Below are positions 3,469 through 52,746 of a stretch of 64,000 nt of DNA, piece after piece. The DNA lies in sequence record MT446423.1; one strand, 5' to 3'. This DNA is from Escherichia virus TH58. The number at the start of each line of letters is the position of its first letter. Position 1 is the first letter of the stretch. The position numbers and the translations under genes were made by a program. The notes below the pieces were generated by a model that was not told where the DNA came from, did no database searches, and saw nothing but the letters and a program-made list of their open reading frames with translations.

Positions 3469-3738
3469 ATGACTAAAGCACGTTTCTTACGAGATACTTT
3501 AAAAGTTCTGGAAGCTGAAGCAGTTAAGTTAGTAGAAAAATATGGTGCAAAAGTTAATGGTAATGCCTTCAACAAAGTATGGATGAAAGTTGATTCTGAA
3601 GCTCGAGCTAAAGGTTATTGGGCCACTGATAAACTTGCATCATTCAAAAACAAAGACGGCTCCCCAGCATACGTCCAAGAAGGTATGCCTAATTGGCAAA
3701 ATATTTTGAAAACTTACATCGAAATTGCACAGAAATAA
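3469..3738 (+). CDS. hypothetical early protein inserted between genes 24 and 23
   Basis: 89-aa ORF with GAGGAG RBS, own early promoter, opposite strand to flanking late genes. Confidence 0.45.
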   Translation: MTKARFLRDTLKVLEAEAVKLVEKYGAKVNGNAFNKVWMKVDSEARAKGYWATDKLASFKNKDGSPAYVQEGMPNWQNILKTYIEIAQK

Positions 3739-3748
3739 AACCAAAAAT

Positions 3749-3766
3749 GGGAGACCGAAGTCTCCC
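3749..3766 (-). terminator. hairpin GGGAGAC-CGAA-GTCTCCC; T-run on minus strand (gene 23 terminator)
   Basis: Stem-loop directly downstream of gp23 stop on minus strand followed by U-run in that orientation. Confidence 0.55.
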
Positions 3767-3795
3767 ATAAGGTTATGTATTTTAACGTTAAAGCA

Positions 3796-5364
3796 TTAAA
3801 TTCCTTTAACGTAGACGCGTCTAAAGTAAGCGTTCTTACCAAGGCTGTTCAGGATAGACGGCATACCGGACTGGATGCGAGCACCTGGAGCCTGCAGGGA
3901 ACTTTCAGCAAACGGGTTAACACCGATACCGTAACGAGTTTTAAAGCCCATTACCGGCTGGAAGTTCTTAGGATCGGAACCACGCAGTGGGGTAAGTGCA
4001 ACGTAAGGAGCATAGTAAATACCTGCATCCATTTCGTTAGCGCCTTTGTAACCAACGGTGAAGTAATCCTGTTTAGCATACTGGTCGATGTATACGCGGT
4101 ATTTACCGCCAAGTACACCGGCAAATACAGACTTAGTAGTGTCGGTATTAAAACCAGAAGCCAGACCCTGTGCAGCATAAGAAATACCAGTATCAACTGA
4201 AGCCAGTACGTTAACTACGTTACGGGAAGCGATAATGAAGTTACCTTCACCACGACCGGTTTGACGAGCAATTTCAACTGCTTCTTTATCAATCTGGAAC
4301 AACAGAGCTTTAAAGCTTTCACCGGCCCAACGAGCACCACGGATATCAATCGGGTCCTGGAAGTCAAATACACCAGCTTTAGAACCAACGATATTAGTCA
4401 TACCAGATTTACCAACCTGAGCGGAGTAGTTAATCCAGTCAACAACTTCACGGTTGATTTCCAGCATAATTTCAGTAGCAAGAATACCACTCAGTTCAGC
4501 ATCAGCATCCATACCGTGTACTGCACGGAGGTCTTGTGCCAATTCGATAGAGTAAGCTGCTTTCAGCTGACGAGATTTAGCTTCAATAACTTGTTTGTCG
4601 ATACGGAAGCCCATTTCGTTCCACGGGTTGTCGGTAGAACCATTGAAGCCTTCCTGAAGTTCAGCGATAGAAGTAGCCATACCTTCAGCGATTTCTACCA
4701 GTGCACCAGCTTCCATTTGTTTCTTAATTTCAGCGTCTAATTTAGTTGCATCGGTAGCGCCAGCATCAATTGTTACTACAGCGGAAGCTTGTAGATACAC
4801 AGTACCAGTGTCCTGGAAGAAGTGAGTATAGATATCACCTACAACGGTTTGTGTGCTATCAGCCAGAAGTGGGAATTTCTTAGCAGCACCCTGACCAGAG
4901 AACATCGCGTCCGGAGCATACATCGGATGGAAAGCTTCTTTAGCGTCAGCAGCGATAGGGTCTTTACCATATACTGCACGGAGAGCAAATACCTGACCGG
5001 TAGGGCTGTTCATAGGCTGAACACCACAAATATCAAAAGCGATCAGATTAGGAATAGCACGACGAACCATACCCATAACTGCTGGCCCAATTTGGGTTAC
5101 TGCACCAGAGGTTTGACCTGCTGCGATGTTCTGAGCATTATAACCATGGTCCCCACCAATTTCAGCTTCGGTCAAGAAAGAACCAAATGCCTGAGCGATT
5201 TTCTCGTCTTTATATTCAGGGGATACTTCGAAATCTTTTTCCTGGTTTTCGAAGATTTTAGCGATAATAGCCTGCTTGCTATTAGCGATTTCCGGCAGGC
5301 CTTCACCTTCCAGCAGTTCTTTCCATTTGTCTACGAGCTGAGCTTTAGTTTTGATAGTAGTCAT
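3796..5364 (-). CDS. 23: major capsid protein gp23
   Basis: 522 aa; N-terminus MTTIKTKAQLVDKWKELLEGEGLPEIANSKQAIIAKIFENQEKDFEVSPEY matches T4 gp23. Confidence 0.95.
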   Translation of the reverse strand: MTTIKTKAQLVDKWKELLEGEGLPEIANSKQAIIAKIFENQEKDFEVSPEYKDEKIAQAFGSFLTEAEIGGDHGYNAQNIAAGQTSGAVTQIGPAVMGMVRRAIPNLIAFDICGVQPMNSPTGQVFALRAVYGKDPIAADAKEAFHPMYAPDAMFSGQGAAKKFPLLADSTQTVVGDIYTHFFQDTGTVYLQASAVVTIDAGATDATKLDAEIKKQMEAGALVEIAEGMATSIAELQEGFNGSTDNPWNEMGFRIDKQVIEAKSRQLKAAYSIELAQDLRAVHGMDADAELSGILATEIMLEINREVVDWINYSAQVGKSGMTNIVGSKAGVFDFQDPIDIRGARWAGESFKALLFQIDKEAVEIARQTGRGEGNFIIASRNVVNVLASVDTGISYAAQGLASGFNTDTTKSVFAGVLGGKYRVYIDQYAKQDYFTVGYKGANEMDAGIYYAPYVALTPLRGSDPKNFQPVMGFKTRYGIGVNPFAESSLQAPGARIQSGMPSILNSLGKNAYFRRVYVKGI

Positions 5365-47646: not shown

Positions 47647-47676
47647 TACTCTATCAAAACAAACAAGGAAACAAAA

Positions 47677-47979
47677 ATGAAAACATATCAAGAATTTATT
47701 ACTGAAGCGCGAGTGAGTGCAGGTAAATTAGAAGCCGCTATAAATAAAAAGGCCTATTCATTTCACGATTTGTCCGATAAAGACCGTAAGAAACTTGTAA
47801 GCCTTTATATTGACAAAGAGCGTATTCTCGCTCTTCCTGGCGCTAATGAAGGTAAACAGGCCAAGCCTTTGAATGCTGTCGAAAAGAAAATTGATAACTT
47901 TGCTTCTAAATTCGGTATGTCTATGGATGACCTTCAGCAAGCGGCTATCGAAGCAGCTAAAGTAATTAAAGGTAAATAA
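47677..47979 (+). CDS. internal protein with capsid-targeting sequence
   Basis: N-terminus MKTYQEFITEARV; 100 aa. Confidence 0.55.
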   Translation: MKTYQEFITEARVSAGKLEAAINKKAYSFHDLSDKDRKKLVSLYIDKERILALPGANEGKQAKPLNAVEKKIDNFASKFGMSMDDLQQAAIEAAKVIKGK

Positions 47980-47981
47980 CA

Positions 47982-48010
47982 GTTTACTTTCTCCTAGAAT
48001 TGTGATAGTA
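47982..48010 (+). promoter_or_regulatory. early promoter cassette (GTTTAC ... TGTGATAGTA)
   Basis: Family member upstream of the denV-remnant ORF. Confidence 0.45.
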
Positions 48011-48058
48011 TATTCATAATTACTTGGATGGGTAAAATGACTCAATGAAAAAATTTTA

Positions 48059-48241
48059 ATGAAGCCACACTGGTATAAGTATTACGGCAAAAATATTTAC
48101 ATTCAAATAACATGGGAACAACCTGGACCTCATGATTCTATGAGGGATTCCCGCCAACCTGTAATAAGGTCGAGCCCAAGTGCGGTAATGGGTAAATACA
48201 GAAATGGACAATTCATGTGCCATGGAATGGCCCAAACCTAG
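48059..48241 (+). pseudogene. ghost of a denV 3' end (PHWYKYYGKNIY) fused to a short ORF
   Basis: Codons 3-14 (48065-48100) duplicate the denV C-terminus with many synonymous changes. Confidence 0.4.
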
Positions 48242-48245
48242 AGAG
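48154..48245 (+). repeat. direct repeat copy A (about 92 bp) upstream of the internal-protein gene
   Basis: CCAACCTGTAATAAGGTCGAGC...GCGGTAATGGG...ATGTGCCATGGAATGGCCCAAACCT repeated at 48651-48745. Confidence 0.6.
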
Positions 48246-48251
48246 AACAAA

Positions 48252-48581
48252 ATGAAAACATATCAAGAGTTTATCACTGAAGTTACATTATCTGCGGAAC
48301 AGAAAGCTGCTATCGAAGAAGCTAAAAATCCCAAAGTAACATATAAAGTAAATAGTAAAGGCGTTTTTGATGACTTGGTTCAAGACCCTGAATTGAAAAA
48401 AGCTCTTTCTAAAACTAATGCGTACTTTGCTCCTAAATTTAACACAGCCGGCGTACTTATTGGATTGGATGTATTCAACTCTAAAGGTGTTCTATCTAGT
48501 GCCTTTGGTTATGCCGCTAACAAAATTACCAAAGCCGCATGGGAATCCAATACCAAACAAGCTCAAAAGCCTAGAGTATAA
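48252..48581 (+). CDS. internal protein with capsid-targeting sequence
   Basis: N-terminus MKTYQEFITEVTL; 109 aa; flanked by direct repeats. Confidence 0.55.
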   Translation: MKTYQEFITEVTLSAEQKAAIEEAKNPKVTYKVNSKGVFDDLVQDPELKKALSKTNAYFAPKFNTAGVLIGLDVFNSKGVLSSAFGYAANKITKAAWESNTKQAQKPRV

Positions 48582-48650
48582 TTCTTGCCTAATAAAGGGA
48601 AACGCAACCTCTCCTTATGAACGTCGAGTCCTCTAAGTGATGTACCTTTT

Positions 48651-48745
48651 CCAACCTGTAATAAGGTCGAGCGCAATGCGGTAATGGGTTTACATAGCGA
48701 GTCGAAGGACCTAACATGTGCCACGGAATGGCCCAAACCTTAAGA
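48651..48745 (+). repeat. direct repeat copy B (decayed, 1-nt indel versus A)
   Basis: See copy A. Confidence 0.6.
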
Positions 48746-48753
48746 GAAATAAT

Positions 48754-50666: not shown

Positions 50667-50696
50667 GTTTACTTCTCCTCTAGTTGTGTTACTATA
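50667..50696 (+). promoter_or_regulatory. early promoter cassette inside a 12-bp perfect inverted repeat that sequesters the regB RBS
   Basis: GTTTAC 50667-50672, TGTTACTATA 50687-50696; CTCCTCTAGTTG (50675-50686) pairs with CAACTAGAGGAG (50704-50715). Confidence 0.55.
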
Positions 50697-50723
50697 GAAC
50701 TGTCAACTAGAGGAGAAATCAAA

Positions 50724-51182
50724 ATGACTATCAATTCAGACGTTTTTATCCGCCGTAATAAACTCCGTCGAATCTTTGAAACGGAGTTCCGCAAAATAAA
50801 TGCCGGTATAAAAGATGCTGCAAAGTCTCTTGGACTACCAGGCTTTCATATCAAGTATTCTCAACATCTCTTAGATCGTGCCATCCAGAGAGAAATAGAT
50901 GAGAACTACGTTTTTGAATTATTTCATAAAGTAAAAAATCATGTTAAAGAAGTTGCAGAATTTTTATCAATGCCGGCACGTCCGGATGTTGATGAAGATT
51001 TTGACGAAGGTGTCGAATATCGCCCAGGCCGTTTAGAAATAACTGATGGAAATCTTTGGTTAGGACTTACAGTTTGTCGCGAAAATCCGGCATTCAAAAT
51101 GAAGACTCTTCAATGCAGAATGGCTATTATTAACAGTAAACGATTACCAGGAAAAGCTTCTAAAGCAGTGATTAAAATCTAG
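50724..51182 (+). CDS. regB: RegB endoribonuclease
   Basis: 152 aa; N-terminus MTINSDVFIRRNKLRR; size and position between vs genes as T4 RegB. Confidence 0.7.
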   Translation: MTINSDVFIRRNKLRRIFETEFRKINAGIKDAAKSLGLPGFHIKYSQHLLDRAIQREIDENYVFELFHKVKNHVKEVAEFLSMPARPDVDEDFDEGVEYRPGRLEITDGNLWLGLTVCRENPAFKMKTLQCRMAIINSKRLPGKASKAVIKI

Positions 51183-51190
51183 AGGTAAAC

Positions 51191-51733
51191 ATGAGAAAAG
51201 CACTACTCGCTGGTCTATTTGCTCTTTCATTATCAGCACATAGCTCCGAGCATACTTTTAGTAATGTCCAACTCGATAACTTGAATTATGCTTATCAGTT
51301 TGGGGAACAGTTTTCTAAGGACGGAAAATTTAAAACGCATGAAAATATGCATAAGAAAGGACTTGGATACATAATGGCCGCAATACTATGGCAGGAATCA
51401 TCTGCCGGTATTAATCTTAAAGATAAGAAAGGTCACCATGCGTATGGAATGTTCCAAAATTATCTACCAACAATGAGGGCAAGAATTAACCAGCTTGGTT
51501 ATAATATGTCTGATGCCCAAATTAAGAAAATGCTATCTAAGCGGTCTAATTCAGCCAGATGGGCTTATATCGAATTTTCTTATTGGTTAAATATACATAA
51601 CGGGGATATAAGAAAAGCTATATCCTCATATAATGCGGGATGGAAGACAAGTGCTGGAAGTAAATATGCTTCTGAAGTCCTAGAAAAGGCTAATTACCTT
51701 AAATCAAATAAACTACTGGAAATAAAAGAATGA
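51191..51733 (+). CDS. secreted lytic-transglycosylase-like protein (T4 vs.1 position)
   Basis: Signal peptide MRKALLAGLFALSLSAHS; SLT motifs QESS, AYGMFQ, SSYNAGW. Confidence 0.6.
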   Translation: MRKALLAGLFALSLSAHSSEHTFSNVQLDNLNYAYQFGEQFSKDGKFKTHENMHKKGLGYIMAAILWQESSAGINLKDKKGHHAYGMFQNYLPTMRARINQLGYNMSDAQIKKMLSKRSNSARWAYIEFSYWLNIHNGDIRKAISSYNAGWKTSAGSKYASEVLEKANYLKSNKLLEIKE

Positions 51734-52077
51734 CCAAAATGTTGGCTTTAATAGTTGGCTTGGTTTCATTTAACGCTCTTGCTAATACTACATATACTGA
51801 TGTAACGGAGTATACAAACAGAACGGCGTCTGATTATTGTGGTCAAAGTCAAGAGTGTAAAGTAGATTTTTCACAAAAATTGTTATATGCGTATAAAGAC
51901 GGAGAAAAAGATGGGGCGTCTAGTAGGTTCAAGGCGTCTACCTTAATTAAAAGATACTATAAAAAATGGCAAATATTAGAATGCTCGGTGGCGGAACCTA
52001 AAGATAAGGCAGCATGCAATTCTATGGTGGACCGTCTAGTTGACTCTTATACTAGAGGACTTGCAGCAAGTGATTAA
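51730..52077 (+). CDS. small secreted cysteine-containing protein (T4 vs position)
   Basis: Signal peptide MTKMLALIVGLVSFNALA; four Cys; ATGA overlap with the SLT gene. Confidence 0.5.
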   Translation: MTKMLALIVGLVSFNALANTTYTDVTEYTNRTASDYCGQSQECKVDFSQKLLYAYKDGEKDGASSRFKASTLIKRYYKKWQILECSVAEPKDKAACNSMVDRLVDSYTRGLAASD

Positions 52078-52537
52078 AAACTATATCAAGGGCGATATTG
52101 TCGCCCTGTTTTCTAAAGGTAATAATATTGCTCATGGGTGTAATTGTTTTCATACAATGGGCGCCGGCGTGGCAGGACAATTAGCAAAGGCTTATCCAAA
52201 AATTTTAGAAGCCGATAAACTTCAAACCGAATTCGGAGACGAGTCTAAACTCGGGACTTATTCGGTTTATGAAAAATATTTTAAGACACATAAAGCTTAT
52301 TGCTTTAATCTTTATACACAGTTTGAGCCGGGACCTAATTTTGAGTACTCTGCTTTAATGAATTGTATAATAGAATTAAATGAATTCGGAAAGAATAAGA
52401 TAACAAAGCCTGTAATTTATATGCCAAGAATTGGTGCAGGTATCGGTGGTGGAAACTGGGATGTCATCGAAGAGATTTTAGATACGTATTCCACTAAACT
52501 AGAAATTGTGATTGTTGATTGGGAACCATTATTATGA
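52070..52537 (+). CDS. TARG1/OARD1-like macrodomain protein (T4 tk.4 position)
   Basis: KGDIVA...IAHGCNCFHTMGAGVAG and YMPRIGAGIGGGNWDVIEEIL align with TARG1 motifs; start uncertain (GTG 52070 with GAGGA RBS, or TTG 52040). Confidence 0.6.
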   Translation: MIKNYIKGDIVALFSKGNNIAHGCNCFHTMGAGVAGQLAKAYPKILEADKLQTEFGDESKLGTYSVYEKYFKTHKAYCFNLYTQFEPGPNFEYSALMNCIIELNEFGKNKITKPVIYMPRIGAGIGGGNWDVIEEILDTYSTKLEIVIVDWEPLL

Positions 52538-52746
52538 ATATACATTATCCGCATCCATATGACCCAAAGAATAAGGCAGTAATTATTCGACAATGGGAAC
52601 GCATTTGTCGTACCAAATGTCCAATTAATAGTCCACATGATGTAGATAAAGACTACATCGGAACATTCGTTGAATATACCTTTATTGATAAGAAAGGTCG
52701 TAAACAGCATGTAGAAGAATACTGCTTAAAGGTGACATGGTTATGA
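52534..52746 (+). CDS. hypothetical small protein (tk.3 position)
   Basis: About 70 aa from MNIHYPHPYD. Confidence 0.35.
   Translation: MNIHYPHPYDPKNKAVIIRQWERICRTKCPINSPHDVDKDYIGTFVEYTFIDKKGRKQHVEEYCLKVTWL

Follow-up and report, generated by a model that had tools for sequence, protein, structure and literature searches.

The vs gene of bacteriophage T4 is annotated as encoding a modifier of the host valyl-tRNA synthetase (ValRS), and the purpose of this modification has been a question without answer since the 1960s. The question is raised again by a locus of Escherichia virus TH58 (sequence record MT446423.1), here analysed within a stretch of 64,000 nucleotides, hereafter the window, to which positions refer unless another phage is named. 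At positions 51191 to 52077 it carries the orthologues of T4 vs.1 and vs, two overlapping open reading frames (ORFs) whose products are both predicted to be exported, and the question becomes what an apparently exported Vs protein would do in place of, or besides, modifying ValRS.

The answer that we favour, as a plausible proposal still short of a probable one, is that vs.1 and vs form an envelope-directed module, expressed early with regB and consisting of a periplasmic enzyme, Vs.1, and its regulator, Vs. In the mechanism envisaged, vs.1 and vs would be transcribed early with regB as one unit, the translation of vs being coupled to that of vs.1 through an ATGA overlap, and both proteins, synthesised with cleavable Sec signal peptides, would work in the periplasm. 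Once mature, Vs.1, predicted to have a GH23 'SLT' fold, would cut murein glycan strands, while mature Vs (~11 kDa), a predicted four-helix protein with two probable disulfides, would bind Vs.1 as its regulatory subunit or inhibitor and hold back or guide its activity; loss of Vs should therefore be worse than loss of Vs.1. The wall of the infected cell would thereby be remodelled from early or middle times without premature lysis, and the association of 'Vs' with ValRS would be secondary, mis-assigned, or a product of mixed cell compartments.

Were Vs indeed the periplasmic partner of a transglycosylase, T4-like phages would possess a previously unrecognised early envelope-remodelling module, and hundreds of database entries ('valyl-tRNA synthetase' for Vs, 'endoribonuclease' for Vs.1) would be mislabelled. 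A different explanation would also be required for the minimal-medium phenotype of vs. A 2025 screen singled this gene out as the one in T4 with the strongest condition dependence in that medium, a result that its authors still explain through the old annotation. If, on the contrary, the classical annotation holds, a cytoplasmic protein with a conserved export signal itself requires explaining. With Vs.1 relatives in >2000 phage genomes from three families of virulent myoviruses, the question reaches beyond T4, and the envelope reading of Vs is directly testable by simple experiments.

Identity of the two genes

The proposed module consists of the following features:

51191..51733, + strand: vs.1 orthologue, 180 aa; predicted precursor of an exported GH23/SLT-like protein of lytic-transglycosylase type (identity to T4 Vs.1, phrog_600, Pfam SLT, AlphaFold2 (AF2) model)
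51730..52077, + strand: vs orthologue, 115 aa; predicted precursor of a small exported four-cysteine, four-helix protein (identity to T4 Vs, phrog_1256, AF2 model)
51730..51733, + strand: start/stop overlap ATGA, the vs ATG lying over the vs.1 TGA; predicted translational coupling

The phage of the window is T4-like, its region 50700-52600 sharing ~99% identity with Escherichia phages vB_EcoM-ZQ3, APCEc01 and JK45 (Tequatrovirus). ORF 51191-51733 is 83% identical to T4 Vs.1 (NP_049725) and matches phrog_600 (function unknown; E 4.6e-67), and ORF 51730-52077 is 66% identical to T4 Vs (NP_049724) and matches phrog_1256 ('valyl tRNA synthetase modifier'; E 6.7e-35); Vs homologues carry PF26829. 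The order regB-vs.1-vs-tk.4...tk is common to the window, T4, JK45, DK-13, dhabil, KLB31 and Potts1. A first-pass annotation, made from the sequence of the window, had placed the pair at the T4 vs.1 and vs positions of an early block, and these identities and this gene order confirm the placement. Early expression is likewise borne out in T4, where Vs.1 and Vs have both been detected by mass spectrometry and are classed as early RNA / middle protein (PMC9697503 supplement). Considering (i) the identity to T4 proteins, (ii) the phrog matches, (iii) the T4 gene order, (iv) the relatives present in many phages, and (v) the detection of the T4 proteins, both ORFs are orthologues of T4 vs.1 and vs, and real genes rather than chance ORFs.

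No difference of substance separates the window pair from that of T4, whose two genes overlap in the same way and whose products also carry the signal peptides and the cysteines; the envelope reinterpretation thus applies to T4 vs.1 and vs themselves. In database records, Vs.1 orthologues are mislabelled 'endoribonuclease / RegB' in several GenBank entries (JK45, locus L002, 3492-4034; dhabil, locus L004, 1961-2500; Marshall, locus L009, 2408-3025), and Vs orthologues are labelled 'valyl-tRNA synthetase', that is, the enzyme itself, in many; these errors are being propagated.

Vs as a predicted exported, disulfide-bonded protein

The features of vs on which its predicted location depends are:

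51730..51783, + strand: predicted Sec signal peptide of Vs, residues 1-18, likely cleaved between ALA and N; features conserved in 38 homologues
51838..52017, + strand: four invariant cysteine codons, C37 (51838-40), C43 (51856-58), C85 (51982-84) and C96 (52015-17)

Signal peptides were judged throughout by our own n/h/c heuristic, which looks for a positively charged n-region, a hydrophobic core of 10-20 residues and a small-x-small site. These features, with K/R n-regions and cores of 11-19 residues, were found in essentially all of 44 Vs.1 and 38 Vs homologues despite sequence drift, as well as in 66 of the 75 Vs.1 ORFs of loci from IMG/VR, where the misses were mostly mis-called starts. 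Both products are therefore predicted to be exported, as the first-pass annotation had supposed from the window pair; the two ORFs also exist as it described them, including the motifs it quoted and the four cysteines of Vs.

Vs has the N-terminus MTKMLALIVGLVSFNALA and exactly four cysteines, C37, C43, C85 and C96. Its AF2 model (pLDDT 86.9) displays helices at residues 20-37, 41-64, 69-85 and 90-114, preceded by disordered residues 1-19, and places the cysteines at the H1/H2 and H3/H4 turns. Their spacing, C-x5-C and C-x10-C, gives at such turns the geometry of hairpin-stapling disulfides, which would form in the periplasm, and Vs is thus probably stapled by two of them, C37-C43 and C85-C96. 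A zinc site built from the four cysteines is less likely, given this spacing at helix turns and the signal or lipoprotein leader.

Relatives of Vs were retrieved from 795 phage records by tblastn, and remote members, at 21-31% identity, were found 3' of vs.1 in Acinetobacter and RB43-like phages. In the combined alignment (relatives at 21-70% identity) invariance is limited to the four cysteines, G58, L103 and G110, K3 and Y107 coming close to it; every member retains the signal peptide. In CC31-like orthologues (3549-3875 in locus L041; also L042, L044 and L066) the type I signal peptide is replaced by a canonical lipobox signal, MKKLFVLLVVFALSGC, with an LSGC lipobox and Lys at +2, and the four cysteines of the mature part are kept. 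No conserved internal Met from which a leaderless isoform could start is present in the alignment of Vs homologues. The conserved leader, its retention in remote relatives, the cysteine geometry and the CC31-like lipobox together make export hard to doubt and point to Vs as an exported, disulfide-bonded protein. The first-pass annotation had found an apparent signal peptide difficult to reconcile with a cytoplasmic role, and this clash is only strengthened by the lipoprotein variant, the invariant cysteines and the Acinetobacter-phage orthologues. A cytoplasmic location, which action on ValRS in vivo needs, is accordingly not what the signal peptide of all members, the lipobox and the cysteines predict.

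The classical alternative is that Vs is a cytoplasmic 'tau' peptide binding host ValRS, its N-terminus giving no export or a partial one and its adjacency to vs.1 being incidental packing. It has in its favour the annotation of T4 Vs and of phrog_1256, and in classical work vs+ phage is said to have stabilised a temperature-sensitive ValRS in vivo and to have had phenotypes when plated on valS(ts) relA hosts. Against it stand the export features just described, among them cysteines typical of periplasmic disulfides and a lipoprotein signal in one lineage, and the presence of the family also in Acinetobacter phages, always 3' of a gene for an exported enzyme. Moreover, an experiment tying the purified ValRS-binding peptide to this ORF was not found in the searchable literature. 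That factor was reportedly of ~10 kDa, closer to the mass calculated for processed T4 Vs (11.0 kDa) than to that of the precursor (13.1 kDa); several other ORFs of ~10 kDa (vs.3, vs.4) lie in the same T4 interval. Full-length T4 Vs with an N-terminal His tag was insoluble in E. coli (PMC8076793), as expected if the tag blocks the signal peptide. Taking both sides together, we consider the cytoplasmic peptide unlikely. Should both the classical ValRS evidence and the assignment of the ORF hold, Vs must have an existence in the cytoplasm, something that its sequence does not predict.

The fold of Vs in the model, four helices, is without known relatives. No family in the Pfam set used was matched by Vs, the family profile gave only chance-level hits against PDB sequences, and a phmmer search of 1.84 billion representatives retrieved only phage Vs. 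Among possible relatives, the DUF1311/LprI type was rejected: 3gi7, a member of that family, whose proteins we take to be four-cysteine lysozyme inhibitors, appears only at Foldseek rank 25 (E 3.7, TM 0.2), and none of the 38 Vs members gives a Pfam signal for it.

Vs.1 as a candidate murein-cleaving enzyme

For Vs.1 the relevant features are:

51191..51244, + strand: predicted Sec signal peptide of Vs.1, residues 1-18, likely cleaved between AHS and S (heuristic analysis, 44 homologues)
51395..51397, + strand: codon of Glu69, predicted catalytic acid in the W-Q-E-S-S motif; invariant in 44 homologues

The protein (N-terminus MRKALLAGLFALSLSAHS) contains the motifs WQESS (residues 67-71), AYGMFQ (84-89) and SSYNAGW (145-151). 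Across the 44 homologues, which reach down to 40% identity, E69, S71, G86, Q89, N90, Y147, N148 and G150 are invariant, and the family-1 lytic-transglycosylase motifs E-S, G-x-x-Q and Y-N-x-G are all present; they are found as well in the relatives from S13, Felix-O1-like and Vi1-like phages. Pfam SLT (PF01464) is the sole family match, at 18.3 bits (E 0.0017; gathering cut-off 21.3) for the window protein and at E<=0.01 for 39 of the homologues (best E 1.3e-7), and several orthologues have a precomputed PF01464 hit. The AF2 model (pLDDT 89.7, pTM 0.83), in which residues 1-20 are of low pLDDT (~60), has only GH23 proteins as top PDB matches in Foldseek: 3w6e, 8rhi (MltD), 6fcq/5o2n (Slt) and 4dq5 (phi6 P5 lysin), a Ralstonia GH23 chitinase being among them (probability 0.9-1.0, TM 0.42-0.52, E ~0.02-0.2). 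As modelled, Vs.1 has a lysozyme-like GH23 fold, as a distant member, and this fold, together with the complete set of motifs, makes the cleavage of murein glycan strands the most likely activity of the mature protein (~18.7 kDa). The first-pass annotation's description of an SLT-like protein is thus upheld, with a conserved catalytic Glu.

The SLT similarity is not new: it was published for vs.1 of six T4-like phages, with earlier PSI-BLAST matches cited, by Nolan et al. in 2006, who proposed 'some role in cell lysis' for the product (PMC1524935). This earlier knowledge, like the occurrence of Vs.1 relatives without Vs in many phages, sometimes beside spanin genes, goes beyond what the first-pass annotation contained. 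The genes vs.1 and vs were also known; what appears to be unreported is the envelope reading of Vs, which, like the conserved vs.1-vs coupling, was not found in the searchable literature.

A catalytically dead, murein-binding protein of lysozyme fold, with the pair playing a structural or sensing part in the envelope, would account for the Pfam score under the gathering threshold, for a Vs.1 family profile that gave only chance-level hits and no solved transglycosylase among PDB sequences, and for structural matches that are modest (TM ~0.5, E ~0.02). Nonetheless, a catalytic Glu and three further motifs kept invariant over such divergence are not expected of a dead enzyme, and we regard this possibility as very improbable. 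A signal-anchor-release (SAR) endolysin was set aside too, the hydrophobic core being short (13 residues) and having, in nearly all homologues, a small-x-small site after it.

By tblastn, 2058 phage records contain relatives of Vs.1, among them those of Acinetobacter, Aeromonas and Vibrio T4-like phages and of Vi1-like and Felix-O1-like phages. A scan of 185,579 bacterial genomes (one per species) returned only a binned 167-kb phage contig. By these searches the family is phage-specific, and there is no bacterial context from which its function could be borrowed.

Some of these phages raise another possibility, namely that Vs.1 is an auxiliary lysis enzyme, waiting in the periplasm until holin, endolysin and spanins act at the end of infection, with Vs only silencing it until then. 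In the T4-like Cronobacter phage S13 (locus L007, 2411-3593) the Vs.1 relative, of 179 aa and with a signal peptide and an AWQESS motif, does sit with lysis genes: it lies between alc and pseT, directly upstream of the i-spanin/o-spanin genes and overlapping them. In felixounaviruses the relative bears the label 'lysin' and is found three genes 5' of the spanins, and the role suggested by Nolan et al. points the same way. In T4-like phages, on the other hand, vs.1 is an early/middle gene at a great distance from e, t and the spanins. Lysis does not occur in T4 e mutants, and Vs.1 thus cannot lyse cells alone. Furthermore, vs.1 is non-essential, unlike e, t and pseT.2/pseT.3, in which transposon insertions are almost absent (bioRxiv 10.1101/2025.11.20.689424). 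An auxiliary lysis role therefore seems to us rather improbable.

Functionally, Vs.1 is closest to the small Sec-exported family-1 lytic transglycosylases called 'specialised'. These proteins of secretion and conjugation systems (VirB1, P19, IpgF, IagB, EtgA) are thought to open murein locally and not to lyse the cell. Vs.1 shares with them a length of 150-180 aa, a signal peptide, an SLT/GH23 domain and the E-S, G-x-x-Q and Y-N-x-G motifs, and differs in being phage-specific, in having a conserved extra N-terminal helix (residues 23-38), and in being very divergent, as its Pfam E value and the lack of a PDB sequence hit indicate. We know of no trans-envelope machine that Vs.1 would serve.

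Linkage of vs.1 and vs

The tight coupling that the ATGA overlap suggested for the window pair is borne out by most of 75 vs.1 loci from IMG/VR. A Vs-like ORF lies downstream on the same strand in 64 of them, and in 55 of these 64 the distance from the vs.1 stop to the vs start is -8 to +7 nt; the other nine comprise one frameshifted copy and eight RB43-like phages with a Vs-like gene 0.5-1.2 kb downstream. Conversely, when loci were retrieved through Vs, vs.1 preceded it in 27 of 27, and Vs was never encountered without vs.1. The gene regB precedes vs.1 in 51/75 loci.

The association is not reciprocal. Relatives of Vs.1 occur without Vs in Aeromonas T4-like, Vi1-like and Felix-O1-like phages, so that Vs.1 does not need Vs, and Vs gives the impression of an accessory that is invariably accompanied by Vs.1, not the reverse. 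In Aeromonas phage 31 (locus L010, 3299-3739), which lacks Vs, the slot between vs.1 and tk.4 is occupied by a 75-aa ORF and an unrelated predicted lipoprotein of 146 aa (MKKSIATLIAIGMYGC...), and this lipoprotein might have taken the place of the exported partner without being homologous to it.

Insertion phenotypes in T4

A 2025 preprint describes a saturated transposon library of T4, in which vs and vs.1 are non-essential in LB, with 30/32 and 46/52 TA sites hit, respectively (bioRxiv 10.1101/2025.11.20.689424). Comparison of M9 glucose with LB made vs the most depleted T4 gene (log2 fold change (log2FC) -2.19, adjusted p 0), and vs.1 showed the same trend (log2FC -0.87, p 0.0055, adjusted p 0.155); a clean vs knockout plaqued poorly on M9 glucose only. 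In the LB controls of the same preprint, mean insertion counts were 26.6 for vs and 22.6 for vs.1, and 179 (regB), 290 (tk.4), 652 (vs.3), 265 (vs.4) and 767 (tk.3) for their neighbours. Reads in the pair are thus ~7- to 25-fold below the neighbours, and the same pattern appears in other control sets. The authors of the preprint retain the ValRS reading, the role of the modification being unknown to them.

Our reading of these counts is that vs.1 and vs make a shared, condition-dependent contribution to fitness, with loss of vs the worse of the two. This asymmetry argues against Vs as a mere activator of Vs.1, and fits either a Vs that restrains Vs.1 or a function of Vs on its own, with vs.1 insertions that are partly polar.

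Vs as a possible regulator of Vs.1

That Vs is the partner of Vs.1 is what we infer, and the proposed pair is closest to three kinds of known system: the T4 Spackle-gp5 pair, the periplasmic or lipoprotein lysozyme inhibitors, and the wall-hydrolase effector/immunity pairs. In Ivy, PliC/MliC, PliG and PliI, as in type VI Tse1-Tsi1, a small exported protein, soluble or lipid-anchored, neutralises a wall-degrading enzyme, with an adjacent or coupled gene, and the inhibitor or immunity partner evolves fast. Compared with these, the fold of Vs is all-helical with two probable disulfide staples, and Vs.1 and Vs would both be made by the virus, in the same cell and compartment, inhibition being only proposed. 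Spackle (gp61.3) of T4 is likewise small, early, mainly helical, signal-peptide-bearing and periplasmic, and forms a stoichiometric inhibitory complex with a phage muramidase domain (PMC7677548, PMC7650644). Vs shows no detectable similarity to it in sequence or fold; furthermore, the Spackle target gp5 arrives with the superinfecting phage and is encoded far away, whereas Vs would be co-translated with its putative target.

These likenesses also suggest that Vs might protect the envelope independently of Vs.1, inhibiting gp5 lysozyme, leaked T4 lysozyme or host transglycosylases in the manner of Spackle or PliC/MliC. Vs is small, early and predicted to be exported, and its soluble and lipoprotein forms are paralleled in the PliC/MliC family, which occurs in both. 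It is also the fastest-evolving of the four neighbouring genes (mean p-distance 0.61, against 0.33 for Vs.1), which would suit a conflict interface, and insertions in vs are more harmful than those in vs.1. The strict linkage 3' of vs.1 would nevertheless be left unexplained, Vs has no fold or sequence similarity to the Spackle, Ivy or Pli/Mli families, and T4 already has Spackle for gp5 (PMC7677548, PMC7650644). A protective factor acting apart from Vs.1 is, in our view, likewise rather improbable.

Several observations weigh against an envelope module in which Vs regulates Vs.1. The strongest is the classical T4 work, which reportedly found effects of vs on a temperature-sensitive ValRS in vivo and argues for action in the cytoplasm. 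In addition, (i) the M9-specific defect of vs is also what a role in tRNA charging predicts, minimal medium being the condition where amino-acid supply and charging limit, a point that equally favours the ValRS-modifier alternative; (ii) the low insertion counts of vs.1 could be polarity on vs; (iii) a mirror-tree test gave for Vs.1 and Vs a partial correlation of distances of 0.18, no higher than for control gene pairs; (iv) Vs lacks sequence or fold similarity to the known lysozyme and transglycosylase inhibitors (Spackle, Ivy, PliC/MliC, PliG, PliI, LprI); and (v) some phages, as described above, have Vs.1 without Vs or, in the RB43-like group, a Vs-like gene that is not adjacent.

The interpretation of the first-pass annotation is accordingly supported in part. 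Its idea of an enzyme with a partner or inhibitor is favoured by gene linkage and shared T4 mutant phenotypes only, and gained nothing from the co-evolution test; superinfection exclusion, which it also considered, found no support at all. None of the specific functions it listed (superinfection exclusion, wall remodelling, enzyme with inhibitor) is established, while what it observed in the sequence is confirmed.

Considering the envelope module again in the light of the T4 data, a more specific proposal can be formulated, which we advance with somewhat greater reserve than the module itself. The T4 'valyl-tRNA synthetase modifier' may be an exported, disulfide-bonded partner of Vs.1, the ValRS link having arisen from assignment to the wrong ORF of a gene-dense interval or from mixing of compartments in extracts, and the strong M9 defect may concern the envelope and not translation, Vs.1 being left unrestrained or misdirected.

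Expression signals and neighbouring genes

The pair is flanked by an RNase gene (regB) and an anti-defence gene (tk.4), and the surrounding features are:

50667..50695, + strand: early-promoter-like sequence (GTTTAC, then TACTAT) on the 5' side of regB; read by eye, a candidate only
50710-50715, + strand: Shine-Dalgarno region of regB, GAGGAG, which includes GGAG (read from the sequence)
50724..51182, + strand: regB endoribonuclease gene, neighbour on the 5' side and probably the first of the unit (Pfam REGB_T4 E 2.8e-69, phrog_1323)
52070..52537, + strand: tk.4 orthologue, macro-domain protein, downstream neighbour outside the module (Pfam Macro E 2.2e-06)
52089..52107, + strand: GC-rich hairpin (8 bp) followed by a T-run, 12 nt past the vs stop and in the 5' end of the tk.4 frame (terminator scan)

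The promoter-like sequence at 50667..50695 was not picked up by a generic sigma-70 scan. RegB cleaves at GGAG, and finding this motif in the regB Shine-Dalgarno region agrees with the self-regulation known for regB mRNA; the ribosome-binding site of vs.1 is AGAGGT, without GGAG. At the other end, the hairpin at 52089..52107 (RNA fold -13.8 kcal/mol, z only -1.69) may be a partial terminator or an RNA-processing structure closing the regB-vs.1-vs unit, and TransTerm terminators 'tk.4<--vs' are given for RB69 and RB49 (Nolan 2006 supplement, PMC1524935). The GTG start of tk.4 is as annotated in JK45, and T4 Tk.4 has been named AdfM, an anti-DarTG2 factor (bioRxiv 10.1101/2025.11.20.689424).

Elsewhere in the window, at 47674-48748, denV, which occupies this place in JK45, is absent, and two tandem internal-protein-like genes are found, each opening with the capsid-targeting sequence MKTYQEFITE. 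They are associated with 34-nt repeats at 47674 and 48249 (94% identical) and have direct repeats at their flanks (26-34 nt, at 48154-48247 and 48651-48748; 91-96% identical, ~500 nt apart), and the whole resembles a cassette-exchange arrangement.

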